From: an uncultured Micavibrio sp.
GTDB taxonomy: Bacteria > Pseudomonadota > Alphaproteobacteria > Micavibrionales > Micavibrionaceae
DNA length: 64,000 nt
Reading direction: 5' to 3'
Assembly (NCBI GenBank): GCA_964351195.1
Contig: CAYGNI010000001.1
Span: forward strand, 5,575-69,574
In this document: in pieces, positions 6,816 to 57,922 of the stretch
Layout of the letters: the number at the start of each line of letters is the position of its first letter
How positions within the stretch are numbered: the first letter of the stretch is position 1
Program-made: the position numbers and the translations under genes
Notes under the pieces: model-generated
The model's input: only the letters and a program-made list of their open reading frames with translations
Told to the model about the DNA's origin: nothing
Database searches by the model: none

Positions 6816-6948
6816 GCTTTTGAGTCCTCTATACCTTACACACATATAAATTACGGAAAATTAGTTAATAATTTGTCAAATTCCCGCCTTATGCGTTGTT
6901 TTTTCTGCCAAATCCGTTAAAAATGGCCGTTGATTGGGAGACAATACG

Positions 6949-9354: not shown

Positions 9355-9424
9355 TTTTACTCCGTATCTGTTTTAGATTGACATAATAGAAAATATTGTC
9401 TTTATTTCCTGATAAAGGAAATTA

Positions 9425-10426
9425 ATGCGTATGCCTGCCCAAGAGCCCTTAACACTGTTCCAATCAATTATGGGGAAACCCAATTTGGAGCCCGAACAGA
9501 CCATCACGTCTGGCGCGATTAATACTATTTTTGTGTTTAGGCAAGACGGAAAAAGAGGGGTTTTGCGTGTAAGGACGGGGGAAGAAAATTTTATCTACGA
9601 AAAAGGCTTTTTTAAAGAACTGCTTCTCGAACATTTTCTTGCAAGCGCATTAACCGGCATAGATAACGCAGCACACAATCAAAAAGTTTTAGAAGAGGCG
9701 CTCGATGCTGCAAAACAAGGCGTTATTCCAGAGCAGAAAAGCGGGGTCTTACCCGCACCGCTCGCAGTCGGAAAGATTCAAATGAATGGGCGCTCCACCC
9801 CCTGGATGCTGCAAGAATATGCGGAAGGACTTTTGATGGCGGGATCAAAGGATCGCGAGATCTGGAGAGAGCTGGGCCGCAAAATTGCTTTTTTGCATAG
9901 CTTTTCATTATCAAGCGCCGGACGCTTTGATGCCGAGGCCAGGGATTTATTATTTTCTCAGCATGTTAAAGCGGTTATTGATGAAATTGCTCAGAAAGCA
10001 CCGTATGCATTAATGAGGAAGTTTGAAATTCAGTCCAGGCAAGAAGCCCCCTTCTCATTGTGTCACAACGACTTGCACCCTCTCAATATTGTCAGTGTAA
10101 AAAGTGGTTTGCATGTCTTAGACTGGGATAACGCTTCGATATCAGCCCCTATGCAAGATCTGGCTAAACTTCAAAGATGGACAAACATTGATGAACTTGG
10201 TTACTTGACCCCTGATGCTGATAAGTTTCAGGCATTCTTAGAGGGTTATAGGGAGATCGCTTCGCATGAAATTGATGATACGTTGTTGCAGCTTTACGAG
10301 CTTTTATTTTTATGCCGCGTCTACAGATTTGAAGAAAAACGAGAAAATGCGGGAAGATCACCCCAAGCCCCACATCCTGCCAGCGACACATATAAGCAAA
10401 GAATAGCAGAGCTCTGTCAGGGTTAG
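9425..10426 (+). CDS. Aminoglycoside/choline-kinase-like phosphotransferase family protein
   Basis: Brenner-type catalytic loop CHNDLHPLNIV and VLDWDNA metal-binding motif. Confidence 0.7.
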   Translation: MRMPAQEPLTLFQSIMGKPNLEPEQTITSGAINTIFVFRQDGKRGVLRVRTGEENFIYEKGFFKELLLEHFLASALTGIDNAAHNQKVLEEALDAAKQGVIPEQKSGVLPAPLAVGKIQMNGRSTPWMLQEYAEGLLMAGSKDREIWRELGRKIAFLHSFSLSSAGRFDAEARDLLFSQHVKAVIDEIAQKAPYALMRKFEIQSRQEAPFSLCHNDLHPLNIVSVKSGLHVLDWDNASISAPMQDLAKLQRWTNIDELGYLTPDADKFQAFLEGYREIASHEIDDTLLQLYELLFLCRVYRFEEKRENAGRSPQAPHPASDTYKQRIAELCQG

Positions 10427-33100: not shown

Positions 33101-33969
33101 GCGACGACGTTATTGCTGGTAATGATGGGGATGACGAACTGAATGGCGATGAGGGTAACGACATTGTCAGGGGCGGTAGCGGCGATGACTTCATTAAAGG
33201 CGGTAGCGGCGATGACAGACTGCTTGGTCAAGCCGGAGACGATAACATTAGAGGCGATAGTGGTGACGACACTATTATAGGTAATGGAGGAAACGACGTT
33301 CTCAGAGGCGGCAGCGGCGATGACTTCATCAAAGGCGGCGGTGGTGATGATAAGATCGTAGGCCAGTCAGGAAATGATACGCTCAAAGGTGGCGGACGCG
33401 ATGACTTAATCAAGGGTAATGGCGGAGAAGATACATTAATTGGCCAGGCTGGTGATGACACGCTTAAAGGCGGAGGCAGCCATGACACGCTCAAAGGTGG
33501 CGGCGGGAATGATACAATATTAGGTCAGACCGGTAATGACACGCTTCTTGGTCAAGCCGGTAACGACACCCTCAAAGGCGGGGGTGGAGACGATGTCCTT
33601 AAGGGTAACGGCGGCAACGACAAACTTATTGGCCAGGCCGGTGCAGATCAGCTCTATGGCGGCGCAGGAGCAGATACATTCGTCTTTGATACGAGCAACT
33701 TGAGAAACAATGGCAAAGATACCGTCATGGACTTCAAGAGAGGGCAGGGCGACAAATTGGATATCAGTTCCATCCTCCAGGGATACGATTCCAATGATGA
33801 CGTTATCACGGACTTTGTGAGCATCAATCAAGCCGGTAGAAACAGTGAAATCTTCATAAATCGTGATGGAAATGGTAATGATTTCGTGAAAATTGCAACG
33901 CTGTTGAATGTATCAGGTCTTAGCAATGAACAAGCGCTTGAAAATCAGGGCATCCTTATAACAGAATAA
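30130..33969 (+). CDS. Large RTX-type calcium-binding protein with cadherin-like tandem domains (probable type I secretion substrate/adhesin)
   Basis: N-terminal GNDTxxG/GDGNDTI modules. Four VINVLSNDTDPEG...-type ~99-aa Ig/cadherin-like repeats. A C-terminal block of GGxGxDxL/I nonapeptide repeats (GGSGDDFIKGGSGDDRLLGQAGDDNIRG...) is followed by an acidic tail. Confidence 0.9.
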   Translation: MATINGTNQSETLNGTAGNDTINGKGGADILNGSSGNDTYIWNIGDGNDTIFDHSGTDDRVSFGSGISVSNAIFTISGRDLLVYIGSEQLTIQDHFRKQGFGVGFANKIEKFAFADGTVLNANADLTLNGTNGDDNIFATSIEIPLDAKLNGHGGNDLLDGTQGNDILTGGIGDDRLQGGMGNDTYHWNLGDGNDTIQDFSGMDQIIFGAGIAPEDVTISQISTFNSPGLSAMTVNIGDSFITIEDAFIAGGNMLPNAVEKLVFADGTERRIDRHFTLHGTEGNDELVTNANSIYESDDTLYGLGGNDRLFGKAGNDTIYGGDGDDDLLGGDGDDILNGGTGLDTANGGAGSDTYEWSIGDGNDIFYTTQFVSGDVNTIVLGPGITASDVSLSIEQKAPPSNPLAVYFLDLYLNIGDEVITLGDHFVGDNSLTDFANIFAKIEFSNGSTMNLDYASIAGVSASVSNLGAQINEDATLTVTQSQLSLSMGGTPVDPSQIIYTLDTAPIKGQLTLHNVEISAGGTFTQANINSGSIRYVPNLNVDTDDSFAFTVSANGMTMPQETFNIDIIPVNDRPNANNDSATLTENTSRVINVLSNDTDPEGSPLTVTIQSGPVHGNVTVNANKTITYTPFANYTGSDSFVYKVNDGGINGTDTATVSLTVNDDGIPESNSPPVANNDSATLTENTSRVINVLSNDTDPEGSPLTVTIQSGPVHGNVTVNANKTITYTPFANYTGSDSFVYKVNDGGINGTDTATVSLTVNSDGIPEPNSPPVANNDSATLTENTSRVINVLSNDTDPEGSPLTVTIQSGPVHGNVTVNANKTITYTPFANYTGSDSFVYKVNDGGINGTDTATVSLTVNDDGISDPPPPTNIAPVANNDTITLIRGSAKTINVLSNDSDADGDSLRVTFNTNPAHATLSMSSNGTLTLIANSQYSGTYSIQYTIDDNNGGTDTGTVTVHAQNPTPVNGSRFDNEITGTNGVDIIYGRAGDDVIAGNDGDDELNGDEGNDIVRGGSGDDFIKGGSGDDRLLGQAGDDNIRGDSGDDTIIGNGGNDVLRGGSGDDFIKGGGGDDKIVGQSGNDTLKGGGRDDLIKGNGGEDTLIGQAGDDTLKGGGSHDTLKGGGGNDTILGQTGNDTLLGQAGNDTLKGGGGDDVLKGNGGNDKLIGQAGADQLYGGAGADTFVFDTSNLRNNGKDTVMDFKRGQGDKLDISSILQGYDSNDDVITDFVSINQAGRNSEIFINRDGNGNDFVKIATLLNVSGLSNEQALENQGILITE
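31861..32751 (+). repeat. Three near-identical in-frame 297-bp tandem repeats inside the RTX gene (a fourth, diverged copy starts about 32764)
   Basis: Repeat starts at 31861, 32158 and 32455 give an exact 297-nt period. By eye the copies differ at only a handful of positions. Confidence 0.9.
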
Positions 33970-40460: not shown

Positions 40461-40565
40461 TTTTAGCTTTTAAGTTGAGACATGAAACAGAGCACTATTA
40501 GACAGAATCCAACTCTTTTTTGAAATCGTACTTTACTACCGGCTCAGCATAAACTTATTTCTTGA

Positions 40566-40651
40566 ATTGACTAAATTCTGTCGTAAAGTTTTTAGAGTGT
40601 CTCTTTTTAGATGAGGGTAGTGGTTAAATGTTTTTGAAAAAAAGACTGAAA
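40566..40651 (-). mobile_element. Non-coding scar of an IS6-family transposase 3' region
   Basis: Two blocks, aaattctgtcg and tggttaaatgtttttgaaaaaaagactgaa, match 42080-42090 and 42110-42142 inside the truncated transposase gene. Indels destroy the frame. Confidence 0.5.
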
Positions 40652-40684
40652 GGTAGGGGTTGTAGTCAGCCGATAACTATTCTC
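40652..40684 (+). repeat. IS6-like terminal repeat, copy A
   Basis: GGTAGGGGTTGTAGTCAGCCGATAACTATTCTC is 30/33 identical to copy D. Confidence 0.8.
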
Positions 40685-40819
40685 TTTTCAAATTCTTATC
40701 TTCATCAATAACGGCGTGCGGTTAATACGCGCCTTTTCACTGCACAATATGCGTCGAATATTCTTGCCAATACGGTGAATGAGTGATATATTCTCCTTAT
40801 AATATGCGGTGAATTGATC

Positions 40820-41932
40820 ATGACTTATATACACGAATTAAAAAAATGGCCGGACTTTTACTGGGACAGCGCTCATCTATCCACTCTCTTGGCAGAAGTT
40901 CGTCACGCCCAAGGGCGGTTGCTTGGCAAAATGGAAGCGCTTGGATTTCCCCTAAGAGCCGAAGCCATTTTAGAAACTCTTACTTTGGACACACTAAAAT
41001 CCTCTGAAATAGAAGGCGAAATCCTTGATAAAGAGCAAGTACGCTCATCTATCGCGCGTAGACTTGGTATGGATATCGCCGGGCTTATTCCGTCTGAGCG
41101 CCATATCGATGGCGTTGTGGAAATGATACTTGATGCAACCCAAAACTTCGCGAAGCCATTAACCGATAAACGCCTATATGGATGGCATGCCGCTTTGTTT
41201 CCTACAGGCTATAGCGGCATTCATAAAATCACAGTGGCCGCCTATAGAAATGATGAGCAAGGCCCTATGCAGGTTATTTCCGGTTCATACGGACGTGAAA
41301 AAATACACTACGAGGCACCAAATGCCGCGCATTTAAAAAAGGAAATGGATCATTTTCTCATCTGGTTTGAAAAGAAAAGCGATACCGATGCAGTACTGAA
41401 GGCTGCACTTGCTCATTTATGGTTTGTTACTATTCACCCTTTTGATGATGGGAATGGCCGTATCGCCCGCGCTATATCTGATATGGCGCTTGCACGCTCG
41501 GAAAAAACAACCCAGCGTTTCTACAGCATGTCGGCACAAATCAAAATCGAACACAAAGAATATTACGACATATTGGAGCGAACCCAAAAAGGCGATCTGG
41601 ATATCACTGCATGGCAATGGTGGTTTTTAGAATGTCTGTGGCGAGCTATAAATCAGGCAGAGGAAACTCTTGCCTCAATTTTATTCAAGGCAAAATTTTG
41701 GGAAATGTATAAAGAGGTATCCATCAATGAGCGTCAGCGCACTATGCTAAATAAACTGCTGGACGGGTTTGAGGGCAAACTCACTTCTTCTAAATGGGCC
41801 AAAATAACCAAATGCTCTCAAGATACGGCATTGCGTGATATTACGCATCTTCTGGAGCACAGCATATTAATTAAAGATCCAGGGGGAAGCCGCAGCACGA
41901 GTTATAGCCTCAACGATCTTAATAACGTTTAA
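40820..41932 (+). CDS. Fic-family protein (AMPylase/adenylyltransferase-type) with C-terminal winged-helix region
   Basis: Fic active-site motif HPFDDGNGRIARA, N-terminal inhibitory-helix-type motif SSEIEG, and an N-terminal WPDFYWD segment. Confidence 0.88.
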   Translation: MTYIHELKKWPDFYWDSAHLSTLLAEVRHAQGRLLGKMEALGFPLRAEAILETLTLDTLKSSEIEGEILDKEQVRSSIARRLGMDIAGLIPSERHIDGVVEMILDATQNFAKPLTDKRLYGWHAALFPTGYSGIHKITVAAYRNDEQGPMQVISGSYGREKIHYEAPNAAHLKKEMDHFLIWFEKKSDTDAVLKAALAHLWFVTIHPFDDGNGRIARAISDMALARSEKTTQRFYSMSAQIKIEHKEYYDILERTQKGDLDITAWQWWFLECLWRAINQAEETLASILFKAKFWEMYKEVSINERQRTMLNKLLDGFEGKLTSSKWAKITKCSQDTALRDITHLLEHSILIKDPGGSRSTSYSLNDLNNV

Positions 41933-41973
41933 TACAAAACAGAGAACAGTTAGTGAAGACTGCTTGGTAAAAT

Positions 41974-42006
41974 GGCAGTGCTGTCAGACAAACGATAACT
42001 TTTCTC
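41974..42006 (+). repeat. IS6-like terminal repeat, copy B (terminal inverted repeat of the truncated IS)
   Basis: GGCAGTGCTGTCAGACAAACGATAACTTTTCTC starts 54 nt outside the transposase stop codon. Its first 14 nt resemble the IS26 IR GGCACTGTTGCAAA (recalled from memory). Confidence 0.7.
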
Positions 42007-42027
42007 CGAAAGTTTATCTGAGTTTTG

Positions 42028-42360
42028 TCAGGTACAAACCTCCTTCCAACAAACAACGGAATTGTGACGTAGGTTTTTAAAATTCTGTCGGGTTTCTAAA
42101 TGGTGTTGATGGTTAAAATAGTTTTGAAAAATTGACTGAATTGAGATGAGTTTTTGAAGCGATCGCATTGATCTAAATTTATTCATGCCGCGCTCTCGCC
42201 TTCGAAAATGCAGATGTGAATTTTCAACTTGGTTATTCTTATACCGCCCCGTTTCTTGAAGTTGACCGATTTTCAAATCTCTCAACGCAGCTTTATATGA
42301 TGGCAGCTTATCAGTCACAATTTCTTTCAGTCGACTATATAGATACATCAATTTTTTCAA
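42028..42360 (-). pseudogene. Truncated IS6/IS26-family transposase
   Basis: IVTDKLPSYKAA...YKNNQVENSHLHFRRRERGMNKFRSMRSLQ matches the C-terminal DDE 'E' region of IS6-family transposases (YLNNxIEQDHRxIKxR). It is only 110 aa, against ~230 aa for intact copies. Confidence 0.75.
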
Positions 42361-42413: not shown

Positions 42414-43022
42414 TTATGACAGTTTTCTCTTGCCTGAACGGTTTTTAAGATCGTTAATTGTTAGCCTCATCTCTTTCTCCCCGTAGTCAATGTCCGGATG
42501 ATGTGCTCTTGCAACATGGATCGCTTTCACAAGGTCGTATGGCTTTACAAGCGCAGGAAGCCGGACATCGTCCATGAAACGACAATCGAGATATAACCGC
42601 CCATATCCTAATAGCCAGCCCAGCCATCCGTGATCCACTCTCTCAGATCTCATATCGATGAGATCCACCTCTTGAACCTGGATTCGAATTATCCCTTTTT
42701 TGTAAAGAACACGTTTATTTGTGAGGCCAACTTCTATCGAAATATACATCAGAAACATAAACATAAGGCCAGAAAGACCGATTGTTCCAAAAATCCAGAT
42801 AACAGGCACTTTCAACTCGGATGAATGAAAGGACCATAAACTCATTGAAACCAGACCGGCTTGATTACTACCGGAGTAAAACAATAGATAGTGATTAGCA
42901 ATAAAACCAAGAACTAAGAAGAATAAAAGCCATAAAGCGCCTTGGACGACATAAATCCAATGTAATGAGGTAATGGTAAGAATCTTTTCATCTGAATCAA
43001 TAACTTTTTCAACATAGCTCAT
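42414..43022 (-). CDS. Membrane protein with bacterial PH (YdbS/YdbT-like) domain
   Basis: EKILTITSLHWIYVV followed by TM helices, then LTNKRVLYKKGIIRIQVQEVDLIDMRSERVDHGWLGWLLGYGRLYL. 4-nt overlap with the upstream gene. Confidence 0.65.
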   Translation of the reverse strand: MSYVEKVIDSDEKILTITSLHWIYVVQGALWLLFFLVLGFIANHYLLFYSGSNQAGLVSMSLWSFHSSELKVPVIWIFGTIGLSGLMFMFLMYISIEVGLTNKRVLYKKGIIRIQVQEVDLIDMRSERVDHGWLGWLLGYGRLYLDCRFMDDVRLPALVKPYDLVKAIHVARAHHPDIDYGEKEMRLTINDLKNRSGKRKLS

Positions 43023-43582
43023 GTATCATCCTTTTTATCCTTGGGGCTGTTATTGGAACCTGAATAATCTCCCATAAACATTGATAAATGATCTTGGTGA
43101 TTCTGCGCCTGCTTCAGGTTTTTGGCATCGCCGTCGTCCTTACTGTCCTGAAGTGTTTTATCGGTTTGTGTCTTTTTATCTTTTGTAATTTTTCGCCGGA
43201 TCAGGGCAAATTCCATGGCATCGCTCAGACCGCTAAATTCGCCCCGGATCATATTATCTGCAGCGCCGGCTTCGATTACAAATGTTGCAAGTTCATGTTC
43301 TTTTTCGCCTTTTCCAGTAATAACAATGATAGGGATATCATGAGCGGAAAGACCCATCTGGCGGTAGATCTCTTGAGGATCTTCAGACCCTTTCAAGCTT
43401 AGGTCCAGGATGATGATATCCGCACGCAGTTTCTTTACGTCAAGATAGCCAATACCCTCTGTCAGGGTGGGGCACTGCCAGATATAGCATGCAATATCAT
43501 CGCGGCTTTCCACTCTGCTTTTTATATTGTTAATGTCCGCTTCATTATCGCAGATAAGCAGAATTTTTATGTTTTTTTTCAT
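43019..43582 (-). CDS. Receiver-domain protein with no recognisable output domain (low-complexity acidic/basic tail)
   Basis: KILLICDNEAD...ADIIILDLSL...IIVITG is receiver-like. The C-terminal ~60 aa are K/D/Q-rich. Confidence 0.7.
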   Translation of the reverse strand: MKKNIKILLICDNEADINNIKSRVESRDDIACYIWQCPTLTEGIGYLDVKKLRADIIILDLSLKGSEDPQEIYRQMGLSAHDIPIIVITGKGEKEHELATFVIEAGAADNMIRGEFSGLSDAMEFALIRRKITKDKKTQTDKTLQDSKDDGDAKNLKQAQNHQDHLSMFMGDYSGSNNSPKDKKDDT

Positions 43583-43761
43583 TGTTTTATGTGTTCCAGG
43601 CTTTTATCAAACACCATGATGTAGGAGTTCTCGTCAGAGAGGTCATTTTGAAAAGCAATATTGCTTTTGCAACCATCCTCTTGCTCTGCATCAAACCCCC
43701 TATGCAGAAGCGGTGTGATTTCACGTGAAAAATGCGGTTTTGATTGATAGTGAATGTTCAT
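43579..43761 (-). CDS. Small hypothetical protein (60 aa), first gene of a three-gene overlapping operon
   Basis: Its only support is the ATGA overlap with the receiver gene. No motif. Confidence 0.4.
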   Translation of the reverse strand: MNIHYQSKPHFSREITPLLHRGFDAEQEDGCKSNIAFQNDLSDENSYIMVFDKSLEHIKQ

Positions 43762-43835
43762 AATTTTCTTTCTAGTCTTCTATCGGCACATCAGGAGGCC
43801 GGGCTTTAAAGACACAGGCCTCCTCGTGCTCTGGG

Positions 43836-44000
43836 TTAGCTGCATCCGCCTTCGGATTGCATGTCGGATTTTTCCTGTTTGCTTTCCTTGTTGTCGCGCG
43901 GCTTATTCGCGGCATCTTTATTCGTAACTACACCGGATTTGTCTTTCGGCTTTTGGTTTGCGGGACGGATTTCATTTGGTTTTTTGTTTTTGTTAAACAT
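43836..44000 (-). CDS. Small hydrophilic K/N/D-rich protein (54 aa), stress-protein-like; not in the ORF track
   Basis: MFNKNKKPNEIRPANQKPKDKSGVVTNKDAANKPRDNKESKQEKSDMQSEGGCS. SD aaggaaac. ECF-type promoter motif ~65 nt upstream and a hairpin (43793-43824) downstream. Confidence 0.5.
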   Translation of the reverse strand: MFNKNKKPNEIRPANQKPKDKSGVVTNKDAANKPRDNKESKQEKSDMQSEGGCS

Positions 44001-44065
44001 GATCGTTTCCTTACATTTCGGGGGTTAAGTTTTTTGGTATGGTTAGAGTCTATTGAGCCGTGTAT

Positions 44066-44100
44066 CAGGAAGCGATGCGGGAAGAAGGCAGCCATATAAA
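44066..44100 (-). promoter_or_regulatory. ECF-type promoter motif, copy 1 (TTATAT-N14-CGCATCGC)
   Basis: The minus-strand reading TTTATATGGCTGCCTTCTTCCCGCATCGCTTCCTGA aligns with the three other copies. Confidence 0.55.
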
Positions 44101-44189
44101 TTTCTCGTAAGGATCGAATATTCTCACGTTATTATGATTGCTTTCATGCTATAAAAGCGTACACATGTGTTTTGGAAAGAAGATCGCGC

Positions 44190-44804
44190 ATGAAGCGTTT
44201 TGCCGCATTATTGATAACGATGCTTCTGATAACAAGCGGCACATACGCATCCGGCGTAGCCGAAAAATTCAGCTTTGACAAAGATCACACCACTGTCGGG
44301 TTCAATGTGAGCTATTTGCTTTTAGCGCGGGTCAGTGGCCGCTTTGACGATTTTAAAGGCTCCTTTGTCATCGACCACGAAAATCCTGAAAACAGCCGTG
44401 CCGACATCGTTATACAAACCGCCAGCGTGGATACCGGCATTAAAGCGCGGGATGCGGATATACGCGGCCCCGGCCTGTTCAATGCCGACCGTTATCCCAC
44501 AATGGTCTTTCACAGCGACAAAATAGAGATGATAACGAACGATACGGGCCGGATGACGGGTGACCTGACCCTGCTCGGCATTACAAAGCCTGTGACGCTT
44601 GATCTTGTCAAAATGCCAGGCCAAGACAAGAGTTTGATTAACGGATACAAAGTCACGGGCCAGATTAAACGCTCGGACTATGGTATGAACGCGTTTATCA
44701 GGCCGATAGGAAATGTTGTGACGCTGCTGGTGTGTTACAATATGGAAGAGTGCAGCAGTGGCGATACCGATCAGAATAAAGCAAAGCCCAGATATAATCT
44801 ATAA
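44190..44804 (+). CDS. YceI-family periplasmic (polyisoprenoid-binding) protein
   Basis: Signal peptide MKRFAALLITMLLITSGTYA and YceI pattern FDKDHTTVGFNVSYLLLARVSGRFDDFKGSFVID. Confidence 0.85.
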   Translation: MKRFAALLITMLLITSGTYASGVAEKFSFDKDHTTVGFNVSYLLLARVSGRFDDFKGSFVIDHENPENSRADIVIQTASVDTGIKARDADIRGPGLFNADRYPTMVFHSDKIEMITNDTGRMTGDLTLLGITKPVTLDLVKMPGQDKSLINGYKVTGQIKRSDYGMNAFIRPIGNVVTLLVCYNMEECSSGDTDQNKAKPRYNL

Positions 44805-44821
44805 ACAACCAGGTTTTCTGT

Positions 44822-45346
44822 TTAAGCCGCGCTTCTAAGTTTTGCGTTCGCGATATAAGCAGGGATAGTGGGCGTATCCAGCATAAATTGCAAACTTGCG
44901 CGGGCGCGGAACAGGCGTGAACGAACCGTGCCGAGTGGGATTTCTAGGATATCGGCAACCTCTTGGTAACTTCCACCTTCAAAACAAACCAAAATAAGGA
45001 TGTTGCGGTGATGGGCGTTGAGTTTAGCCATGGCTCTTTGAACGTCTGAAAAATCCATCTTTGCATCCTGCGTTGGCTTTACGAACTGTTCTTCCAGATA
45101 AGATTCCGGGTCATACTGGGTTTCAAATTTGACCTTGCGGCGATAACCGGAAACGAAGAGGTTATACATGATCTTGGAAGTCCAGCTGAAAAGGTTTGTA
45201 CCATCCTCAAAATAATCCGCCTTTTCAAGCGCACGCAGACAGGTGGACTGGACGAGGTCATCAGCATCGGCTTTGTTTCGCGTTAGACGCATGGCAAATT
45301 TTTGTAATTTTCCGGTTTCTGCAACCAACTCATTCTGGGCAAACAT
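44822..45346 (-). CDS. ECF-family RNA polymerase sigma factor
   Basis: Region 2 DADDLVQSTCLRALEKADYFEDGTNLFSWTSKIMYNLFVSGYRR. Region 4 GGSYQEVADILEIPLGTVRSRLFRARASL. Start at MFAQNEL after a caggag SD. Confidence 0.88.
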   Translation of the reverse strand: MFAQNELVAETGKLQKFAMRLTRNKADADDLVQSTCLRALEKADYFEDGTNLFSWTSKIMYNLFVSGYRRKVKFETQYDPESYLEEQFVKPTQDAKMDFSDVQRAMAKLNAHHRNILILVCFEGGSYQEVADILEIPLGTVRSRLFRARASLQFMLDTPTIPAYIANAKLRSAA

Positions 45347-45401
45347 GTCGATCTCCTGTGGGTTTTGTAATGTAAGAACCAAAGCCTAGGGGACGGCACA
45401 T

Positions 45402-49450: not shown

Positions 49451-49569
49451 GCAATAGAGATTATCGCAGCCCAAGAGAAAAGTTAGCGCAGACTACAAGG
49501 ATAGTGGCAGGGGTTGTAGTCTGGTGATGGCTATTCTTGGGCTTAGATCAAAATAGACTATCTATTGCT
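49451..49569. repeat. ~120-bp imperfect palindrome made of two inverted IS6-like terminal repeats abutting head-to-head (copies C-left and C-right)
   Basis: Matching arm pairs are GCAATAGA/TCTATTGC, AGCCCAAGA/TCTTGGGCT and CAGACTACAA/TTGTAGTCTG. The right arm, GGCAGGGGTTGTAGTCTGGTGATGGCTATTCTT (49506-49538), is 27/33 identical to copy D. Confidence 0.8.
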
Positions 49570-49602
49570 TTAAACCTCTAAAAATGAGCAAAAGGAGTTC
49601 TT

Positions 49603-49947
49603 ATGAGATATTTGTTACATAATTTAGCTGAGCTGGCAGAGCGTCGAGCTGTAAATGTAAGAGCGGAGGCACAGTTGTGGGATATTTTATCACGCGATTT
49701 AAAGCGTGCTGCAAGAGAGTTAGATGAAATCAGGCAGAAACCTAGGCCAACAAAGCCTAAGGCGGATCCGCCGGAAGAAAAGCCGGTATTTGAAGGCCGA
49801 CTTTATGTGCGCGTAAAAGAGGCGCAAAAGATCATGGGGATGGGGCATACGGCTTTATACAATGAAATCAATGAGGGCCGCTTACCGGTCAAAAAAAGCG
49901 GCAGAAAGACATTTATCGCGATGAAGGATATCCATGCTTGGCTTTAG
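49603..49947 (+). CDS. Excisionase/AlpA/MerR-type helix-turn-helix DNA-binding protein
   Basis: The C-terminal YVRVKEAQKIMGMGHTALYNEINEGRLPVKKSGRKTFIAMKDIHAWL is a typical HTH_17/excisionase fold signature. The N-terminal half is coiled and charged. Confidence 0.7.
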   Translation: MRYLLHNLAELAERRAVNVRAEAQLWDILSRDLKRAARELDEIRQKPRPTKPKADPPEEKPVFEGRLYVRVKEAQKIMGMGHTALYNEINEGRLPVKKSGRKTFIAMKDIHAWL

Positions 49948-50183
49948 GCTTTGCCGGATAAGGTGGGGTAGGACTCCTTCATGGTAGCAAGGTGATGCGC
50001 GTGTGATTTACCGTAAAAGCACAATTTACGCCACTCTCAAGTTGCCCGCATCACTTATTTGCTCGCTCCTATATCCATATATTTATTATAAAGAAGCATG
50101 ATTTTAGTTTTCATATTTTATTTGATTTTTTAGGTTTTGTAGTGGTATAAGGTCGAGTATTTTCAATAATAAAGAGTACTTGT

Positions 50184-53100
50184 ATGCCTAGCCCGCACTC
50201 TGTTGAAGCGAAAAAAGCTTACTTTGAAAGTGATGAATTATACGATTTGGCAAAAAGCGCGCCGCGTTTAATGGCTGCTTTTGGCGTCAGTCAATCGGAA
50301 ATACTTACTTTAAAGCCACAGCTTGATGCGACAATTGATACAGAAGGGCTTAGAAATACTGTGCCAATGATTGCTGGTTTAAGAGCAATCGATAAGTTTG
50401 ACGCAAAACAGAATTTCAAACGCTATTTTGTGTTTTTGAGGCTTTTATGCCTGTCTAAATATCCTCCACAAATCAATTATTGGCACGGCACGCCTACACC
50501 TATTAGTCAACAGGAACACGATTCCGCGGACAAGTTGACTATCAGAATGCTTAAAACGCGTGAATTCCGCGAAGAGTTTTATGGTTTTGCTGAGAAATAT
50601 GGTTTTTTAGCTCCGCTTCACTTTTTACTTACATCTAACAGAACGGTAGCACCTGAAGGCGCAGGTGAGTTCCTAGAGAAATGGTGTGCGGATAAGGGCA
50701 TTGATCTTGAGCAATTGAAAGTGGATTACGAAATCCCTGATGGGGATTATGTGTTGCCTAGACCGGATTCCGTAGAGCCTGAAGCGGACACTTCAATAGA
50801 TTTAGCAAATATAGTGGCAGGCCTGAGATATTCTTCAGGTGCTCCAGCAGAAAAAAAAAATATAAGTGCTAATAAGGCCTTAGTGACAGACGGAGAGGTT
50901 TCGTTTCAATATGATATTTCTGATGAGTTTCGATTAAAACTCTTAGATCTTTATGAGCGTGCTTCTAATGCCCAAGATGGCAAAGAAATGGCAGCCATTC
51001 ACAAAGAGCACGATAGATTACATCAATTTGACGAAACCACGAATTTAGATAATAAGGGGCCCAATACTCTTATCCAGCTTGATAAGCTGTGGGAGCAAGG
51101 CAGGTCTACACCAGAGTCAGATGCTTCACACATGATGAGCATCATATTTTTAGATAGTTTTAAACTCAGCAATGATTATATAAGCCAAAAAACTCTAATT
51201 GAGGGCAGACGATTAGAAGAGGTTATTGGTAAAGAAAATGCTGAGCGTATGGGGAAGGCTAAAACTAAAAAATTCTATGAAGAGTTATCGAATGATCAGT
51301 TGTATCGGTTATTTGAGCGCATGCATCAGCATGGAATCTTAGGCATATTTGAAAATCACTTGGCTAATAAAGATGTACATTTTTTGCCGAGCTTTTTATC
51401 TAAAAAGTTAGAGTGGTGGAAAGAAAACAAGATGCCTGTCTTAAAAGCTGGACCCGCTCTATTAGGTGCAGGGCAAGAAAAAAACGACCCGGAACCGGAA
51501 AATGCTGATGCCATTATTGCCGAAAAACAAGAATGGTTTGACCAGCATGGGCTTGCTGTAAAGGCGCGTCGATTAGGCGGTGAACAATTCGCTTTAGCTT
51601 GTGGCCTTGAACATTATGATCCCAGTCAATCAGATAAAATTTCAAAACGTATACATGCATATGGATCTACGGTTATAGGGTCTCTGCGTGCTATTGCGAC
51701 TATAGATGCAGATTTTCAACATAAAAGATCGCATTTATTTGCGGAAATGCTGAACCTATCAAAAATTTCTGCGCCTACGATGAAAGCAATCAGTAAAAAA
51801 ATTAAAAAGGCTAGTGCGCTGGGTAATTCGCAGTTGGTGGCAGAAGCTATTCAATATCCAGCATATATTAGCTGGACTGAGGGAGGTCATTGGAGCAGCA
51901 TGCTAAATGATCAGGGCATGAGCGAAGAAGTATTTGGTCATGTAAAAAACTTTGATTTGGTCGCACCTTTTTATTTCTTGCTGAGTTCAAAAAACACGCA
52001 TGCGCCAAGGCATGTTGCTGATGACTTTAAAGATTGGTGTCAAAAAGAAGGCATTAATCTGCGTCAAGCACTTTTGGATTATGAGCTTATTGATCTCAAC
52101 AAACCAAAACCTGATATTGACCTTGAAATGTCTTTGGCAAGCCAGCTTATTGAATATGGGATTTCAACGGGTTCAAAAGAGAGGAATGCTAGGCTAAGTG
52201 GACTCTCGATGGAAGAATTGCATGAAGTGCCTCAAGGTGAAAGGGATCATGCGTGGTATGCGCATATGGTACGGAAAAGTCCCGGTTACATTGGTGACAA
52301 AACTGTCGTGGATGCTCTTACAAAGTTTGTAAGAGAAACATCTGCAAGTGACGTGACGAAAGAACGCTTTGGTCAAGCTATTTCTCAAGAAGCAGGGCTT
52401 TCCGCCCCCCCAGTTCCTGCTATGTGGATAGAGTCTGATGTAGATGACGATGATATTGCCAAGATAGCTTTTTTATTGGAAAGGCTGCCGAAAAACAAAA
52501 CAGGTTTAAAAGTTACTCAATTTGTTCTTCACCGTGAACATGGGATGTTGCCCAAAGAAGGTCAGGCTATTTTTCATTCTGTAACTATACCAGTGCCCAG
52601 CAACAAGCTAGCTACAATAGTTTACAAATATAATGTATCGGTCCTACCTGAGACTGAAGAAGAGCTGGCCTTCGTTCGAAGTACAGCACAGATGGTGCAT
52701 TTTGTGGCTGCTATTAATGATACCTCTCAGCCCTTCAAATTTTTGCCACCTCCAGAAGGTGCCACCGCCGATATTCAAAACAAGCCGCTTGGTACTATTA
52801 CGTTAAATGGACCATCAATAACGCTGAATATGAAGAGAGCGGCACATATACCAGGTATAAACGCACCTGCCTTGCTTCCTACTGTTGATGAGAGTCCCGA
52901 GAAAACAGAGCCTGCAACACCTCCTTCACCAGACGCACCAGTTTTTACGCCTGTTATTGAAGGCTTCGCTCCTTCTCAAGCTGCCAATGATGGTATTGAG
53001 GCTGAGAGGGTTTCTAGAAAGTTTCGACTTAAAGCGATTGAACCTAATGGTATACCTCTTAGTGAACGGGATATATGGTGGCCAAACCCTGAAGGCCGTG

Positions 53101-55073
53101 ATTTGGATCATGCTGTAGTTAGAAAAAACATAAACGCAGCACGATTGAACCGTGCAAGTGGCGCTTACAAAGCTTTCAACGAACCTGCACATCATTATCC
53201 AAGAATTATAAGCTCCCCATCTGATGCACCCGATGGCGCAGAAAAAGAGCCTGCTAATGATACGTCTGTAACCAAAGAAACAACACACCGTAACGAGGAA
53301 AGTGGAGAACAAGCAAGTGGTACAAGAGAAAGAGAATCTCCAGCGGTGTTTGCAGGTCTTACTAAAGTGCCAGATATCGAAGAAAGTACTTTATTCCCAG
53401 ATTCCCTGACGGACGATGAGAAGATTGAAATTTGGGATAAATATGAACAAGCGTATCGAAAAACTGTCGAGGTTTTGTTGTCAGAGGCGGACATGTATTT
53501 ATTTCAGGCACTTAACAGAGGGTGCAATCAATTTAGTTGCTTCATTGATTTAAACAAACCAGGATTTGCTATTCATTTGCGCTTCTCGGGCGAGGTCGAG
53601 ATAGAAGGCGAAACAAAGACACGAACACATTCTTTCATATTAGAAAACTATGATAAGGTTTACAGAGATTTAGGTATTCCTTTAACCATGGAAAACGCAG
53701 TCGATCTCAAAATCGCTGTGCAAAGTATAATTCTAAATACTGAAGGTGTTTTTCCTGCTCGTCATGTTTCTTTTATCGGAAAAAATACTTCTGTCAAATA
53801 TGATACACAAATGCCATCTCCCATGAAAGGTTTTGAACCCGCAATACGCACAGATACTAGGGGCATGTGCTCTCTCACCTACGCAGTACAAGACCCCTAC
53901 AACAAAGGACTGGTCAGAGTAAGTGTGCCTTTAGGTATGGCTATGCATTTTGAAGATGAGGCTGCAGAGCAAACAGAGCTTCGAGAACGTAAGGAGTTTG
54001 TTCTTGGTTATCTAAGAAAAATAGAAGAATACAGAACGTCAGAAGGTTTCCGTGCTTACGTGTTCAAACGGGATGTCATGGCAAAATTAAAATCTTGGTT
54101 GAAGGAAAATAATAAAGAATGGGAAACCTCAGAGCGTGTGGATCTTGAAGGGTTTGAAAGTAGCAGACTGATTCATGTCTTTTCACAAAATGCACAACCA
54201 TCAAACTCAGACGCTGAAAAAAACATTACTTTGGCATCAATTTCTTTGGGAATGGACGTGGGGGGGGAGAATGCTTCATGGAATTGCTATTTGAATTTTT
54301 ATATGGGCGATCAAGGCAGTAAACTAATGGGTGAACGCGTTCATACCCGTTTCTTTTCTTTACGTACACGTGATCCTCAATTGGCAATTGCCAGAGCTTT
54401 GGAAACTTTAAATGGGGTAGGTAATAAATTTGATGGCATATGCGAAGGCTTAATTCCTACTCTGCAAAGGCATGCTCGTGAAAACGGAGATGGGTGGCGC
54501 GTTGAAAAAACAGATAAAGGCTACAAAGTTTATATTGGCGGTGGTTTGGAATTACAGGATGCCTTAGATGATATGATGCGATATGAGCGTGATATCGGCG
54601 TCAAACTTGAACAAATTTTACAAACATATGATGGGAATACTATTATCACGCTCCAAGCTCTACGCTGTTTGATAGGGGATCTTGGTGGTGCTGTTAGACC
54701 TGCACCAGAATATGTTTATGAACGAGACGAAAAGTCAAGAAAGCCGATAGCTTTAAGTGTCCAAGTCCCAAGAGAAAAAGTAGGCTTGATAGATTCATTT
54801 GTTGATGAAGTGGATAGTCATATCAAATGGTTTGCCGAAGAAGCCTACGGCTCAATTGCCATAGGCCAGAAAGAACAACCAGACAGGCGTAAGCGTCCTT
54901 TAGAATATCGTACGGTTCAAATCAGAAATGGGTTAATTCGCGCGGTAGAAGCGATTTACGAAAGTCATTTTGGTTACAAACTCCCAAAAAATTGGTACAG
55001 ACCGGAAATGCAGTATGCCATTTTACAAAACACAACTCGACAAGAAGAAAATTTTCCTAGAAAAGAAGTATAA
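50184..55073 (+). CDS. Orphan giant protein (1,629 aa), no recognisable catalytic motif, with N-terminal internal duplication
   Basis: Uninterrupted ORF in AT-rich DNA. The stop overlaps the next start (TAATG). I found no Walker A, HExxH or methylase DPPY/NPPY motif by eye. Confidence 0.85.
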   Translation: MPSPHSVEAKKAYFESDELYDLAKSAPRLMAAFGVSQSEILTLKPQLDATIDTEGLRNTVPMIAGLRAIDKFDAKQNFKRYFVFLRLLCLSKYPPQINYWHGTPTPISQQEHDSADKLTIRMLKTREFREEFYGFAEKYGFLAPLHFLLTSNRTVAPEGAGEFLEKWCADKGIDLEQLKVDYEIPDGDYVLPRPDSVEPEADTSIDLANIVAGLRYSSGAPAEKKNISANKALVTDGEVSFQYDISDEFRLKLLDLYERASNAQDGKEMAAIHKEHDRLHQFDETTNLDNKGPNTLIQLDKLWEQGRSTPESDASHMMSIIFLDSFKLSNDYISQKTLIEGRRLEEVIGKENAERMGKAKTKKFYEELSNDQLYRLFERMHQHGILGIFENHLANKDVHFLPSFLSKKLEWWKENKMPVLKAGPALLGAGQEKNDPEPENADAIIAEKQEWFDQHGLAVKARRLGGEQFALACGLEHYDPSQSDKISKRIHAYGSTVIGSLRAIATIDADFQHKRSHLFAEMLNLSKISAPTMKAISKKIKKASALGNSQLVAEAIQYPAYISWTEGGHWSSMLNDQGMSEEVFGHVKNFDLVAPFYFLLSSKNTHAPRHVADDFKDWCQKEGINLRQALLDYELIDLNKPKPDIDLEMSLASQLIEYGISTGSKERNARLSGLSMEELHEVPQGERDHAWYAHMVRKSPGYIGDKTVVDALTKFVRETSASDVTKERFGQAISQEAGLSAPPVPAMWIESDVDDDDIAKIAFLLERLPKNKTGLKVTQFVLHREHGMLPKEGQAIFHSVTIPVPSNKLATIVYKYNVSVLPETEEELAFVRSTAQMVHFVAAINDTSQPFKFLPPPEGATADIQNKPLGTITLNGPSITLNMKRAAHIPGINAPALLPTVDESPEKTEPATPPSPDAPVFTPVIEGFAPSQAANDGIEAERVSRKFRLKAIEPNGIPLSERDIWWPNPEGRDLDHAVVRKNINAARLNRASGAYKAFNEPAHHYPRIISSPSDAPDGAEKEPANDTSVTKETTHRNEESGEQASGTRERESPAVFAGLTKVPDIEESTLFPDSLTDDEKIEIWDKYEQAYRKTVEVLLSEADMYLFQALNRGCNQFSCFIDLNKPGFAIHLRFSGEVEIEGETKTRTHSFILENYDKVYRDLGIPLTMENAVDLKIAVQSIILNTEGVFPARHVSFIGKNTSVKYDTQMPSPMKGFEPAIRTDTRGMCSLTYAVQDPYNKGLVRVSVPLGMAMHFEDEAAEQTELRERKEFVLGYLRKIEEYRTSEGFRAYVFKRDVMAKLKSWLKENNKEWETSERVDLEGFESSRLIHVFSQNAQPSNSDAEKNITLASISLGMDVGGENASWNCYLNFYMGDQGSKLMGERVHTRFFSLRTRDPQLAIARALETLNGVGNKFDGICEGLIPTLQRHARENGDGWRVEKTDKGYKVYIGGGLELQDALDDMMRYERDIGVKLEQILQTYDGNTIITLQALRCLIGDLGGAVRPAPEYVYERDEKSRKPIALSVQVPREKVGLIDSFVDEVDSHIKWFAEEAYGSIAIGQKEQPDRRKRPLEYRTVQIRNGLIRAVEAIYESHFGYKLPKNWYRPEMQYAILQNTTRQEENFPRKEV

Positions 55074-57580
55074 TGACACGAAGACCACCTCCCCATAATC
55101 CAATACTCGAAAGAAATGTCCGCTTAATGATGGGGCGTTACACAGCGCATCTTGAAAGCGGAAACCACATTTTGCGTGAAGGTAGCCAGCAAGAAATCGC
55201 TCACAGCACAATTGATTATTTTCGTGAAGTCGATCCTGAAACATATGCCATTCCTACGAATGGCCATTATGTTGCACCCGGAGGGCTAGGAAAAACGATC
55301 ACTGGGGGTGATTTAGTAGTTGGCATTAATACAATGCCAAGTGGCCGCTATGTTCTTGGAGACCCTGCACTTGGGAAACGTATACTTATCGCTGTACCTA
55401 CAAATGGGCTTGTTGATCAATGGGCAAATAGGTTACTTGGCGAGTATAATGAGGAAAAACAAGCTCGTGACCCAAGCATCTTTGGCGATCGGTTTACGGA
55501 AGAAAATGTTGGAATATATCATGCGGGGCTTTCTGATACTGAAAAAGCTAATGTTCTCTCGAAACCCATCGTTATTGGTGTTCATGATTCTCTGCAAATA
55601 CTTTGCAAAGCGCAAGATCCAGCAGCCAGAAAATATAAACCACTTTTAAGCCCTCAAGACTTCGACCTTGTAATTATTGATGAGGTAGACGACAAAGTAA
55701 GAGGAGATGTAACACGCCAATTCTACTTGGACACCTTTTTCCCCCATTGTATGATCGTAGGCTGCACCGCTACTCCTTTATTTAAAAGTGGTAGAACAAT
55801 AGGAGACTATCTTTTTGGAGGAAAAAAACCTATATGTGAAATTCCACATGAGGTAGCTGTCCAAAGACGAGAAATCGCGCCCCACATCAATATTATCGTT
55901 GAGCCAAAAGTTGATTTATCATCCAATCCTGAATCACTGACAAAAGGTTGGGATGATTACACACCAGCCCAACAGCGTCGTTTTATTGAGCAAACCGGCA
56001 TTGATCAGGCATTGTTGAAAGTAATTGCCTTGGGCACCCATCCTAAAACCGGCAAGCCTTTGAGGGATATGATGCAGCTTCATCAGGCTGTTAACATCGA
56101 GCATGCCGAGCTTATAGCCGCACAATTGAACGCCGCATTTGGCCCCAACTACGCAGAGCCAGTGTGGGGGGGAACAGATGCAAAAATGGATGAATGGATG
56201 CGCCGAATTATCAAATGGGAATTTGGTAAAGATGATTTGAGGGCTGTTGTGCAATGCATGGTCTGGGGAAGAGGAACGGATTTTTCTGAGCTTGAAATGA
56301 CCGTGCAGCATGCACCAAGCTTATCGCCAAACAAAACAACACAATTTCACACGCGTGCAAGTCGCAGAGATGATGGAACGAAGACTGCCTTGTATTTGAG
56401 CCCATTCCTTCCGGGGATCGATCAGCTGGTTATTGGTGAGTTATTGGGCGGGTTATACATGATTCCTCCTGGCTTTGAATTTTCTCGAACGACAGACAGG
56501 GGGGGCCTTCCATCTGATCGCGAACCCTGGCCAGAGATAGAAGGAGTGAATGTCTATTATACGGAACGTCATTTGAAAATGTTTGCAAAAGAGCGCAAAC
56601 GCCAAAGAGAGATCGATGGCCTGCAAGAAAAGACAAAAGACATGATGACCTTGGATCAAATGTCGAAGGTTCTAAAGATTGATGCAAGCATTTTATACAA
56701 ACGCGTGTATGGCCCTCTACAAGAAGCTTACGAAAGAAGACAGGCACGCCAGGAGTTTATTGATCTGGAAGATGTACTGCATGTAAGGGGGAAAATATTC
56801 CCTGTGCGCCGTATGGGGTTTTATCAGCACGATGGACAAGAAGTCTTTTGCGTGGATAGAGATTTAGTCGGTTTGTGTGAACATACATTATATGGTCGCC
56901 TTGATCACACGCCCATGGAAGTTCTTGATAAGAAAATCGCTCAAGGATTGCTTGGGTGTGGAAAAGAAGAAATTGATAATTTGTGGGCAGAATTACAGCA
57001 AGCATTCTTTGATCGTAAACCTTATGAAACTGAATTTAAAGTTGCAGGTGTTGATTTCTCCTATAATAGCTTTGGCTTTTTTAGGCGTCAAAGGGAAGGG
57101 ACATCAGAGTTCTTTATTTTCCCAGATGCGCTCATTCCCGCGTATCGCAAAATAAACGGCGTTGATGTTGAGACGGCTCAGCGTTGGGCTGAAAAACCTT
57201 CCATACGCCAATGTAAAACAGCTGATTGGTATACTGCAGCCGGCGTTATGAAAGCATTACAACTTAATCTACTTGTAGAAAACGAAGACACGGTTTTTGT
57301 GGCAGAGGTATTCGAGTTTCTGGAAGCTCGAACACGAACCCTAAGGGTTGGGCAAGAAAGAGACATAATAATAGATATAAATGGGTGTAAACAGGCTCTG
57401 AGATGTTCCAGACGCTGGTTGCCCATGGCTTCTGCTAAGCAGCAGACCACTCTGGTTATCGACAAAAAAGCTTTACAATGGATCAGTAATAAACTGGATG
57501 AAGAAAGCACACATAAAGCGCAAAGATCTCATAGTGCACACCCGGATGACTTAGGACCACAACCGAACATGAGATCATAA
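55073..57580 (+). CDS. Superfamily-2 (DEAD/DEAH, type III restriction 'Res'-like) helicase with ~400-aa uncharacterised C-terminal region
   Basis: Q-like SQQEIAH, motif I APGGLGKT, Ia IAVPTNGLVDQW, II VIIDEVDD, III GCTATP, and V/VI VWGRGTDF...QFHTRASRR. Confidence 0.85.
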   Translation: MTRRPPPHNPILERNVRLMMGRYTAHLESGNHILREGSQQEIAHSTIDYFREVDPETYAIPTNGHYVAPGGLGKTITGGDLVVGINTMPSGRYVLGDPALGKRILIAVPTNGLVDQWANRLLGEYNEEKQARDPSIFGDRFTEENVGIYHAGLSDTEKANVLSKPIVIGVHDSLQILCKAQDPAARKYKPLLSPQDFDLVIIDEVDDKVRGDVTRQFYLDTFFPHCMIVGCTATPLFKSGRTIGDYLFGGKKPICEIPHEVAVQRREIAPHINIIVEPKVDLSSNPESLTKGWDDYTPAQQRRFIEQTGIDQALLKVIALGTHPKTGKPLRDMMQLHQAVNIEHAELIAAQLNAAFGPNYAEPVWGGTDAKMDEWMRRIIKWEFGKDDLRAVVQCMVWGRGTDFSELEMTVQHAPSLSPNKTTQFHTRASRRDDGTKTALYLSPFLPGIDQLVIGELLGGLYMIPPGFEFSRTTDRGGLPSDREPWPEIEGVNVYYTERHLKMFAKERKRQREIDGLQEKTKDMMTLDQMSKVLKIDASILYKRVYGPLQEAYERRQARQEFIDLEDVLHVRGKIFPVRRMGFYQHDGQEVFCVDRDLVGLCEHTLYGRLDHTPMEVLDKKIAQGLLGCGKEEIDNLWAELQQAFFDRKPYETEFKVAGVDFSYNSFGFFRRQREGTSEFFIFPDALIPAYRKINGVDVETAQRWAEKPSIRQCKTADWYTAAGVMKALQLNLLVENEDTVFVAEVFEFLEARTRTLRVGQERDIIIDINGCKQALRCSRRWLPMASAKQQTTLVIDKKALQWISNKLDEESTHKAQRSHSAHPDDLGPQPNMRS

Positions 57581-57889
57581 AATTGGCTAAAACAGTTAAA
57601 TTTTTTACTTTAAAGTTAAGCAAAACCTCGCCCTATGGTATACAAAATGTGTTAAGGAGAAATAGCTTTTGTTAAACCGTTCAAGACAAAAATTCTCTTT
57701 TAATACTCTTACAGATAGAAAAGTATGCGAAAGGTCACGCGGAAAAATAGTCACTTGAGATAATGGGTGAGAAACGGGGTGGTTTTGGCATTCTCTGCGC
57801 GTTTCGGACAGGGGCATATCGGCAAAGCGCTCGGATCGCTGGGCTTCAGCGCGTAAATTCTCTACACCTGGTGGATTGGAAGGCTGAAT

Positions 57890-57922
57890 GGCAGGGGTTG
57901 TAGTCTGCCTATAACTATTCTC
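57890..57922 (+). repeat. IS6-like terminal repeat, copy D
   Basis: GGCAGGGGTTGTAGTCTGCCTATAACTATTCTC. Its last 8 nt overlap the stop codon and C-terminus of the AlkB-like gene. Confidence 0.8.

Follow-up and report, generated by a model that had tools for sequence, protein, structure and literature searches.

A 64,000-nucleotide (nt) stretch of DNA from an uncultured Micavibrio sp. (assembly GCA_964351195.1, contig CAYGNI010000001.1, positions 5,575 to 69,574 of the forward strand), hereafter the window, contains an AT-rich block of three consecutive genes lying between short direct repeats (Table 1). The first gene encodes a small helix-turn-helix (HTH) protein, the second a giant protein of 1,629 amino acids (aa) and the third a superfamily 2 (SF2) helicase of 835 aa. 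The window is chromosomal, since it includes pheT at 6934-9354. The block was flagged in an annotation made by a model from the letters alone (hereafter the original prediction), which described three same-strand genes with the stop codon of the second overlapping the start codon of the third; the open reading frame (ORF) coordinates and the sequence bear out both points, the TAA of the giant gene (55071-55073) and the ATG of the helicase gene (55073-55075) having one base in common. We describe the giant and helicase genes as a conserved pair that is a candidate for a helicase-coupled defence module carried as island cargo, and weigh this reading against three others.

The two genes recur together. 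In 11 of 12 loci examined (the window, L002, L003, L005, L006, L011, L012, L013, L014, L016 and L018) a helicase orthologue lies directly 3' of a member of the giant-protein family, on the same strand and at a spacing of -23 to +39 nt. The pairing persists down to identities of 22% and 29%: P0041 of L014 (2,181 aa) precedes a helicase of 840 aa with 33% identity along the whole protein, P0052 of L016 (2,291 aa) one of 941 aa with 30% identity, and P0059 of L018 (2,046 aa) an 842-aa ResIII helicase. Pairwise identities of the conserved C-terminal domain of the giant protein (the C-domain) and of the helicase rise and fall together across the 11 paired loci (r=0.96, Mantel p=2e-4), and by this measure of sequence divergence the two genes are shown to be inherited together. 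A check put forward with the original prediction was whether homologues would be adjacent across taxa; they are, overlapping or nearly abutting.

Searched whole or in pieces at E<=1, the giant protein gives zero matches in Pfam, NCBIfam, PADLOC, PHROGs and PDB sequences, in keeping with the earlier observation that it lacks NTPase, nuclease, methylase and protease signatures. It had also been called an orphan, and a word-indexed search indeed returned the protein itself alone, but this result was misleading. The family was revealed by BLAST with the ORFs upstream of helicase homologues, whose C-terminal ~560-600 residues align with residues ~1010-1613 of the giant protein at 29-56% identity, and by an exhaustive search of 1.84 billion representative proteins with a profile of the C-terminal region. 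The latter yielded 62 cluster representatives at E<1e-3, 27 of them at <1e-30, so that the C-terminal third is anything but an orphan. Giant ORFs that look like orphans can thus conceal a conserved domain at the C-terminus to which word-indexed searches are blind. Full-length family members are mostly 800-2,551 aa long with the conserved domain at the C-terminus, and none of the 31 that were scanned has a relevant Pfam domain or a PADLOC match.

The N-terminal ~1,070 residues are all but unique. They include an internal duplication, module R, whose two copies of ~180 residues are 27% identical (E 2e-15) and whose hidden Markov model (HMM) matches only the three closest relatives, and a middle module that is likewise of narrow distribution (Table 1). 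At three loci the giant gene is split, at L002 into ORFs of 813 and 700 aa (5468-9998), at L005 into 605 and 1,114 aa (4671-9998) and at L013 into 315 and 671 aa (21-2980). The second ORF carries the conserved C-terminal domain in each case, and the 315-aa ORF of L013 matches the corresponding part of other giants. The N-terminal part thus need not share one polypeptide with the C-domain.

Residues 1070-1629 were modelled with AlphaFold. A first model from a 4-sequence alignment was poor (predicted local distance difference test (pLDDT) 60), for which reason the fold search made with it was uninformative, and it was replaced by a run with a 39-sequence alignment (pLDDT 87.4; predicted template modelling score (pTM) 0.72). 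The replacement shows an alpha/beta domain with several beta-beta-beta-alpha units and long helices. Foldseek comparison of this model to PDB and BFVD gave nothing at E<1e-3 and no query-normalised TM-score >0.15, a search of PDB sequences with the C-domain profile was empty, and hhalign detected no internal sequence repeat within the domain. Relaxases, primases, anti-restriction proteins and secreted effectors, which the original prediction had listed as families that the giant protein might prove to belong to, are accordingly absent from its matches in Pfam, NCBIfam, PHROG and PDB sequences and from the PDB and BFVD fold matches of the C-domain. The low-probability Foldseek scatter contains single-stranded DNA- and RNA-binding proteins (Whirly, MRP1/2, SSB, LEF-3, Rad52 and the double-stranded RNA-binding domain, dsRBD), which we note as a lead only.

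Residues conserved in at least 90% of 46 sequences are A1172, P1211, L1250, G1251, R1269, W1313, L1393, A1401, R1404, R1494 and Y1555, with R1269, W1313, A1401, R1404, R1494 and Y1555 reaching at least 91%; no acidic or His residue of the C-domain is conserved to 90% across these sequences. This pattern, with invariant Arg, Trp and Tyr and no conserved acidic or His residues, makes binding or docking a likelier role for the C-domain than metal-dependent catalysis.

By its sequence motifs the 835-aa protein is a member of SF2, with GGLGKT at 70-75, IIDEVDD at 201-207, TAT at 232-234 and QFHTRASRR at 424-432, positions that are invariant or nearly so across 13 homologues. These 13 relatives, 40-68% identical, come from a word-indexed search, and every contig bearing one of these helicases has a large ORF without Pfam domains immediately upstream of it; distant orthologues are 30-33% identical over the full length. 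Pfam recognizes only ResIII and a sub-threshold AAA_11 in the window helicase, and Helicase_C in 10 of the 13 relatives. The family profile finds weak, generic matches in PDB to the RecA2 domains of RecQ, eIF4A and XPB. The last ~390 residues have no Pfam or PDB match, either here or in the 13 homologues, so the earlier description of a full SF2 motif set followed by an unassigned C-terminus can be kept as it was.

The pair is rare and patchily distributed. One locus only was found in the GTDB representative genomes and one real locus in JGI metagenome contigs, and no relatives in 72,556 plasmids (PLSDB) or in IMG/VR; among phage genomes (INPHARED) there is a single helicase, 23% identical, and the giant protein has no relative there. 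Where hosts are named, they are Alphaproteobacteria or metagenome-assembled genomes of Pseudomonadota.

One setting of the pair is the island integrated at a tRNA gene, with a tyrosine integrase and mobilisation genes. L003 (3666-18322) is a complete 14.6-kb island at tRNA-Pro with perfect 45-nt attachment (att) repeats, containing an integrase gene, a NikA-like gene, the pair, a Vsr-Dcm-Eco29kI restriction-modification system and a gene for an 826-aa protein with no Pfam or PADLOC match. L005 has the order tRNA-like gene, integrase, MobA/MobL, pair, its integrase being 33-34% identical to that of L003, and at L013 an integrase gene adjoins the pair. The contig of L012 begins in a tRNA 3' end; that end and 179 nt downstream (1-201) are repeated with 87% identity just past the helicase gene, at 8268-8446, and the interval of ~8.2 kb is filled by the pair alone, with no integrase. 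The 179-nt repeat contains terminator-like hairpins.

Such settings would suit a pair that serves its carrier element: it might help the excised element to replicate, process DNA during mobilisation or aid establishment in a new host, with the giant protein as an initiator- or loader-like partner. In L003 and L005 the pair indeed stands between an integrase gene with a NikA-like or MobA/MobL gene on one side and cargo on the other, and the two integrases are homologous; the pair-only interval of L012 is similar in size to the 8.4-kb repeat-flanked block of the window, where a gene for an AlpA/Xis-type HTH protein lies upstream; and P0046, a family member discussed below, is encoded next to a type IV secretion system (T4SS) coupling protein. 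Nevertheless we think this explanation, the main rival of the one preferred below, unlikely. At L018 the pair has native composition and neither a nearby mobility gene nor flanking repeats, L014 and L002 are likewise without mobility genes, and the vehicles that do bear the pair are of unrelated types. A primase, Rep, relaxase or polymerase signature is lacking from the proteins, as are conserved acidic residues from the C-domain, and the pair is absent from the plasmid and phage collections just mentioned. Nor are SF2 helicases generally known as the replicative enzymes of islands and satellites.

L018 also bears on a second alternative, that the pair has a role in the host cell or in host interaction outside genetic conflict, as an RNA- or DNA-remodelling complex or as a large secreted or scaffold protein that merely neighbours a helicase. 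There the pair stands alone, embedded in the chromosome at native G+C between an RTX/HlyC operon and housekeeping genes, with no flanking repeats. RTX/haemolysin-type calcium-binding genes recur near L011, L016, L018 and the window copy (at 30130-33969), a recurrence that may only mirror the gene content of the host lineage, and another very large ORF lies just downstream of the pair in the window. The strict co-inheritance with the helicase and the very patchy, rare distribution are hard to square with such a role, as are the foreign composition in the window and the island carriage elsewhere, and the sequence of the giant protein gives no sign of a signal peptide or RTX repeats; we regard this role as improbable.

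At three loci what lies beside the pair is suggestive of defence. The convergent neighbour at L002 is Avs4 (PADLOC E 2.9e-195), and a DrmD-like SNF2 gene (8e-204) follows the pair at L014, together with a type III methyltransferase gene, which is split, and a gene for a Res-like helicase. Islands and phage satellites integrated at tRNA genes are reported to carry hotspots of antiviral systems (PMC9122126). The pair resembles P4-like islands in the arrangement of int, AlpA-type HTH gene and large accessory genes on small tRNA-linked islands, but genes of the P4 kind (psu, delta, alpha primase) were not observed, the window copy lacks a homologue of the island integrases, and the vehicles vary by locus. 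There is a likeness also to DISARM and restriction-modification modules, in which helicases stand beside methyltransferase or restriction genes, in that the pair directly precedes such genes at L014 and L003. This holds for only 2 of the 11 loci, however, and there is no methyltransferase near the window copy; the helicase matches neither the DrmA nor the DrmD model, and a distant orthologue gives no more than a weak match to PbeA (1.7e-15) along its motor core.

Two-gene systems that couple a helicase to a partner, namely Hachiman and Druantia DruH-DruE, would by analogy be the nearest functional counterparts. HamA is described as carrying DUF1837 and HamB as carrying a helicase domain (PMC11914072). 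Hachiman, which occurs in defence islands, resembles the pair in coupling a non-helicase partner to an SF2 helicase (~800-1,000 aa) within a two-gene operon, whereas the giant partner here is 4-6 times larger, with a C-domain fold that has no PDB analogue and with no recognisable nuclease. No DUF1837 was found with Pfam, and no PADLOC match to HamA or HamB at E<=0.01 in the window proteins, nor any in 31 family members. The minimal module of Druantia type III is given as a large uncharacterised protein, DruH, with the helicase DruE (10.64898/2026.05.12.722862), which is assigned to the YprA family (10.1101/2025.09.15.676423). The composition of two proteins, a large uncharacterised one and a helicase, is shared, but there the large protein is the helicase DruE and here the helicase has 835 aa and its partner is the giant. 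YprA-family helicases carry DUF1998. This domain is not among the Pfam matches of the window helicase (ResIII and the sub-threshold AAA_11) or of its 13 homologues (helicase/ATPase-type families only), nor is there a PADLOC match to DruE or DruH in the window proteins or the 31 family members. The original prediction, which saw no obvious match to either system, was right in this. More broadly, the window proteins have 0 matches in PADLOC-DB v2.0 to any defence or candidate system, and no description of this pair was found in the literature. We regard the pair, whose sequence and fold are novel, as a good candidate for a new defence module built around a helicase.

The reading that we prefer, and to which we give about an even chance, is that the pair is a helicase-coupled module of defence against invaders (phage or plasmid), moving horizontally as island cargo. 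Carriage on unrelated vehicles, proximity to defence systems, and a conserved core joined to a fast-changing N-terminus suggest accessory cargo of conflict or defence, and the copy that stands alone at L018 shows the module to be self-contained. Giant protein and helicase would be made in fixed proportion and would form a complex via the conserved C-terminal domain of the former. The variable N-terminal modules might recognize a component of the invader, and recognition would license ATP-driven translocation or unwinding by the helicase on the invader's nucleic acid, with its 390-residue C-terminal extension as a DNA-binding or effector part. The module may have reached the window on AT-rich foreign DNA, with decayed IS6-type end repeats flanking it and the gene for an AlpA/Xis-type regulator upstream. 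The bolder form of this reading, a previously undescribed immune family in which the giant protein is sensor or effector, with a fold that has no solved or viral-predicted counterpart and no recognisable nuclease or toxin, is put forward tentatively, as something rather short of an even bet.

The original prediction had offered a new defence or plasmid/integrative and conjugative element (ICE)-establishment module. The conserved pair and the defence neighbours at three loci lend the proposal partial support, while the defence function itself is read from gene neighbourhood alone. Several observations count against that function. Known defence genes are directly adjacent in only 3 of the 11 paired loci (L002, L003 and L014), in a small sample with several short contigs. 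Pfam scans recognise no nuclease, toxin or other effector domain in either protein. Location on islands is compatible with a function for the mobile element itself too, and L018 looks like a long-resident chromosomal operon. PADLOC-DB v2.0 dates from 2023, and its negatives cover systems named up to then. Lastly, the twelfth locus, L015 (811-4643 of a 6-kb contig), has no helicase downstream: its giant-family member P0046 (814 aa, that is ~350 aa and the C-domain) is encoded tail-to-tail with a T4SS coupling protein gene. About ten other members of 800-980 aa may form with P0046 a helicase-independent, conjugation-linked subfamily.

Should the pair serve defence, it would add a family with no detectable sequence or fold relation to known systems, and one whose mechanism could not be guessed from them, given a C-domain with no structural analogue and no recognisable effector. 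If the bolder form is true, there would be a new anti-phage or anti-plasmid mechanism in which recognition falls to N-terminal modules that diversify rapidly; if the pair serves mobile elements, it would define a function, conserved and new, for islands integrated at tRNA genes in Alphaproteobacteria-like genomes. In either case it is a compact module of 7.4 kb with clear mutational targets, K74 and D203/E204 in the helicase and R1404 and Y1555 in the giant protein.

Table 1. Features of the three-gene block and of the repeats around it, in window coordinates (IS, insertion sequence)
Feature	Position	Strand	Remarks
Decayed IS6-like end and interior	40488-40650		directly left of copy A; same IS end as copy B, more decayed
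Repeat copy A	40642-40690	+	86% identical to copy D over 49 nt
Repeat copy B	41941-42007		presumed IS end ~41974; part of IS6-family remnant 41941-42360 (-)
Truncated IS6-family transposase ORF	42028-42360	-	Pfam DDE_Tnp_IS240, E 2.1e-14, profile positions 49-138 of 139
Repeat copy C	49474-49537	+	GGCAGGGGTTGTAGTCTG core from 49506; left boundary of block
HTH gene	49603-49947	+	114 aa
Giant gene	50184-55073	+	1,629 aa; zero domain-library matches
Giant module R copy 1, residues 10-188	50211-50747	+	internal duplication
Giant module R copy 2, residues 447-638	51522-52097	+	internal duplication
Giant middle module, residues ~645-946	52116-53021	+	common to four relatives only, repeated in some
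Giant conserved C-terminal domain, residues ~1075-1623	53406-55052	+	family-defining part; mapped by HMM
Giant/helicase stop/start overlap TAATG	55071-55075	+	
Helicase gene	55073-57580	+	835 aa
Helicase SF2 motor core, residues ~39-445	55187-56407	+	motifs I, II, III and VI intact; Pfam ResIII; PHROG_16, E 6e-20
Helicase C-terminal extension, ~390 aa	56408-57577	+	strongly conserved; invariant columns to residue 784
Repeat copy D	57880-57928	+	right boundary of block

The block (49505-57921) has a G+C content of 0.4225, against 0.4626 for the window, and only 0.7% of 8.4-kb windows fall below it. G+C at third codon positions (GC3) is 0.33 in the giant gene and 0.37 in the helicase gene, compared with a mean of 0.52 +/- 0.08 and a minimum of 0.40 in 32 upstream genes, so that the AT-richness pointed out earlier is confirmed by both measures. 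Right of copy D the ORFs 58830-59465, 59827-60660 and 60666->63998 have GC3 of 0.28-0.32. Foreign-looking DNA therefore reaches beyond the reported block, and as AT-rich DNA continues past copy D to the end of the window, copies C and D are no clean limits of it. The last of these ORFs (60666-63998, +) overruns the window end; it encodes at least 1,111 aa, has no Pfam domain and a GC3 of 0.28, and is preceded by the other two, which are AT-rich and unassigned. Rfam and tRNA scans of the block gave no match, and promoter and terminator scans of it no excess over shuffled expectation.

The repeat unit GGCAGGGGTTGTAGTCTG occurs exactly at 49506 and 57890, with a third copy at 40652 that has two mismatches; the number of copies expected by chance is zero. 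No copy was found on the reverse strand, so that copies A-D all have one orientation and no inverted partner. Copies A, C and D share ~68% similarity with copy B, the end of an IS6-family remnant. Copy B starts with GGCAGTGCTGTCAGAC at 41974, 54 nt past the stop codon of a truncated transposase gene that lies 7 kb upstream of the block and is missing its N-terminal half. Part of this remnant (42145-42321) was located by tblastn with an IS26 transposase sequence, and Pfam then confirmed it. Ends of the IS6 family are of the type GGCAC/GTG..., and the end of copy B may resemble those of IS26 and IS6100. Copies B and C are imperfect palindromes of ~64-65 nt and are alike for ~33 nt outside the presumed IS end.

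On these sequence likenesses the repeats are real and plausibly IS6-derived; they may be solo IS ends left by a former IS26-type array, a palindrome like a miniature inverted-repeat transposable element (MITE), or a recombination site. The original prediction had the block bracketed by IS6-like terminal repeats. The repeats and their IS6-like character stand, but they are decayed and in direct orientation, no intact IS6 transposase is present beyond the truncated remnant, and they do not delimit a functional composite transposon. The arrangement is like an IS26/IS6-type pseudo-compound transposon in that IS6-like ends in direct orientation flank the block and a real transposase remnant lies upstream; it differs in having no intact IS copy and one end type only, and in the similarity of copies B and C beyond the presumed IS end.

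Repeat-flanked units of ~8.2-8.4 kb with little else in them, in the window and at L012, and the occurrence of the pair as an isolated insert in several genomes raise a third alternative, that the pair is itself a mobile element, loosely like Rep-helicase elements, in which the giant protein would be a new DNA strand-transferase acting through invariant Tyr and Arg residues (R1269, R1404, R1494 and Y1555) with assistance from the helicase. We consider this very improbable. The confident C-domain model has no fold likeness in PDB to a recombinase, topoisomerase, relaxase or HUH enzyme; L018, L002 and L014 have no flanking repeats; the window repeats are like IS6 ends, and those of L003 are tRNA att sites of the ordinary kind, on which a tyrosine integrase acts; and there is one copy per contig.

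An AlkB-like 2-oxoglutarate/Fe(II)-dependent (2OG-Fe(II)) oxygenase gene (57915-58517, -; 2OG-FeII_Oxy_2, E 5e-22) reaches into the right-hand repeat, and copy D contains its last three codons and stop; copy A retains a similar '...GAGAATAG' stretch. An origin of the repeats as att sites taken from the 3' end of this gene is made less likely by the fourth copy, which abuts the IS6-family transposase remnant.

The 114-aa protein has a C-terminal HTH_17 domain (Pfam E 1.5e-8) of the MerR superfamily, AlpA/excisionase type. It matches PHROG_66 'excisionase and transcriptional regulator' at E 2.7e-6, and TIGR01764 (excisionase) with 18.7 bits only, under the cut-off; the HTH_17/Xis-type family includes plain regulators too. 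No homologue of its gene stands beside the pair in the other loci examined. The conserved unit therefore excludes it, and the original prediction went too far in counting an excisionase-type HTH protein as part of the system. tblastn of the window with the integrases of L003, L005 and L013 gave no homologue, nor did the window yield a relaxase or a tRNA.

Some neighbours further upstream may be mentioned. The region 40.4-42.4 kb of the window is IS6 debris, and a DUF4172-Fic protein is encoded at 40814-41932 (+), immediately right of repeat copy A. The gene at 30130-33969 (+) encodes a 1,279-aa RTX/cadherin-like/Big_9 adhesin-type protein and includes three 297-nt tandem repeats (31858-32748) of 92-100% identity. 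Genes for an ECF (extracytoplasmic function) sigma factor (weak PhyR_sigma2 match), a receiver-domain protein and YceI lie at 43019-45382 and may form a cluster like those of the general stress response.

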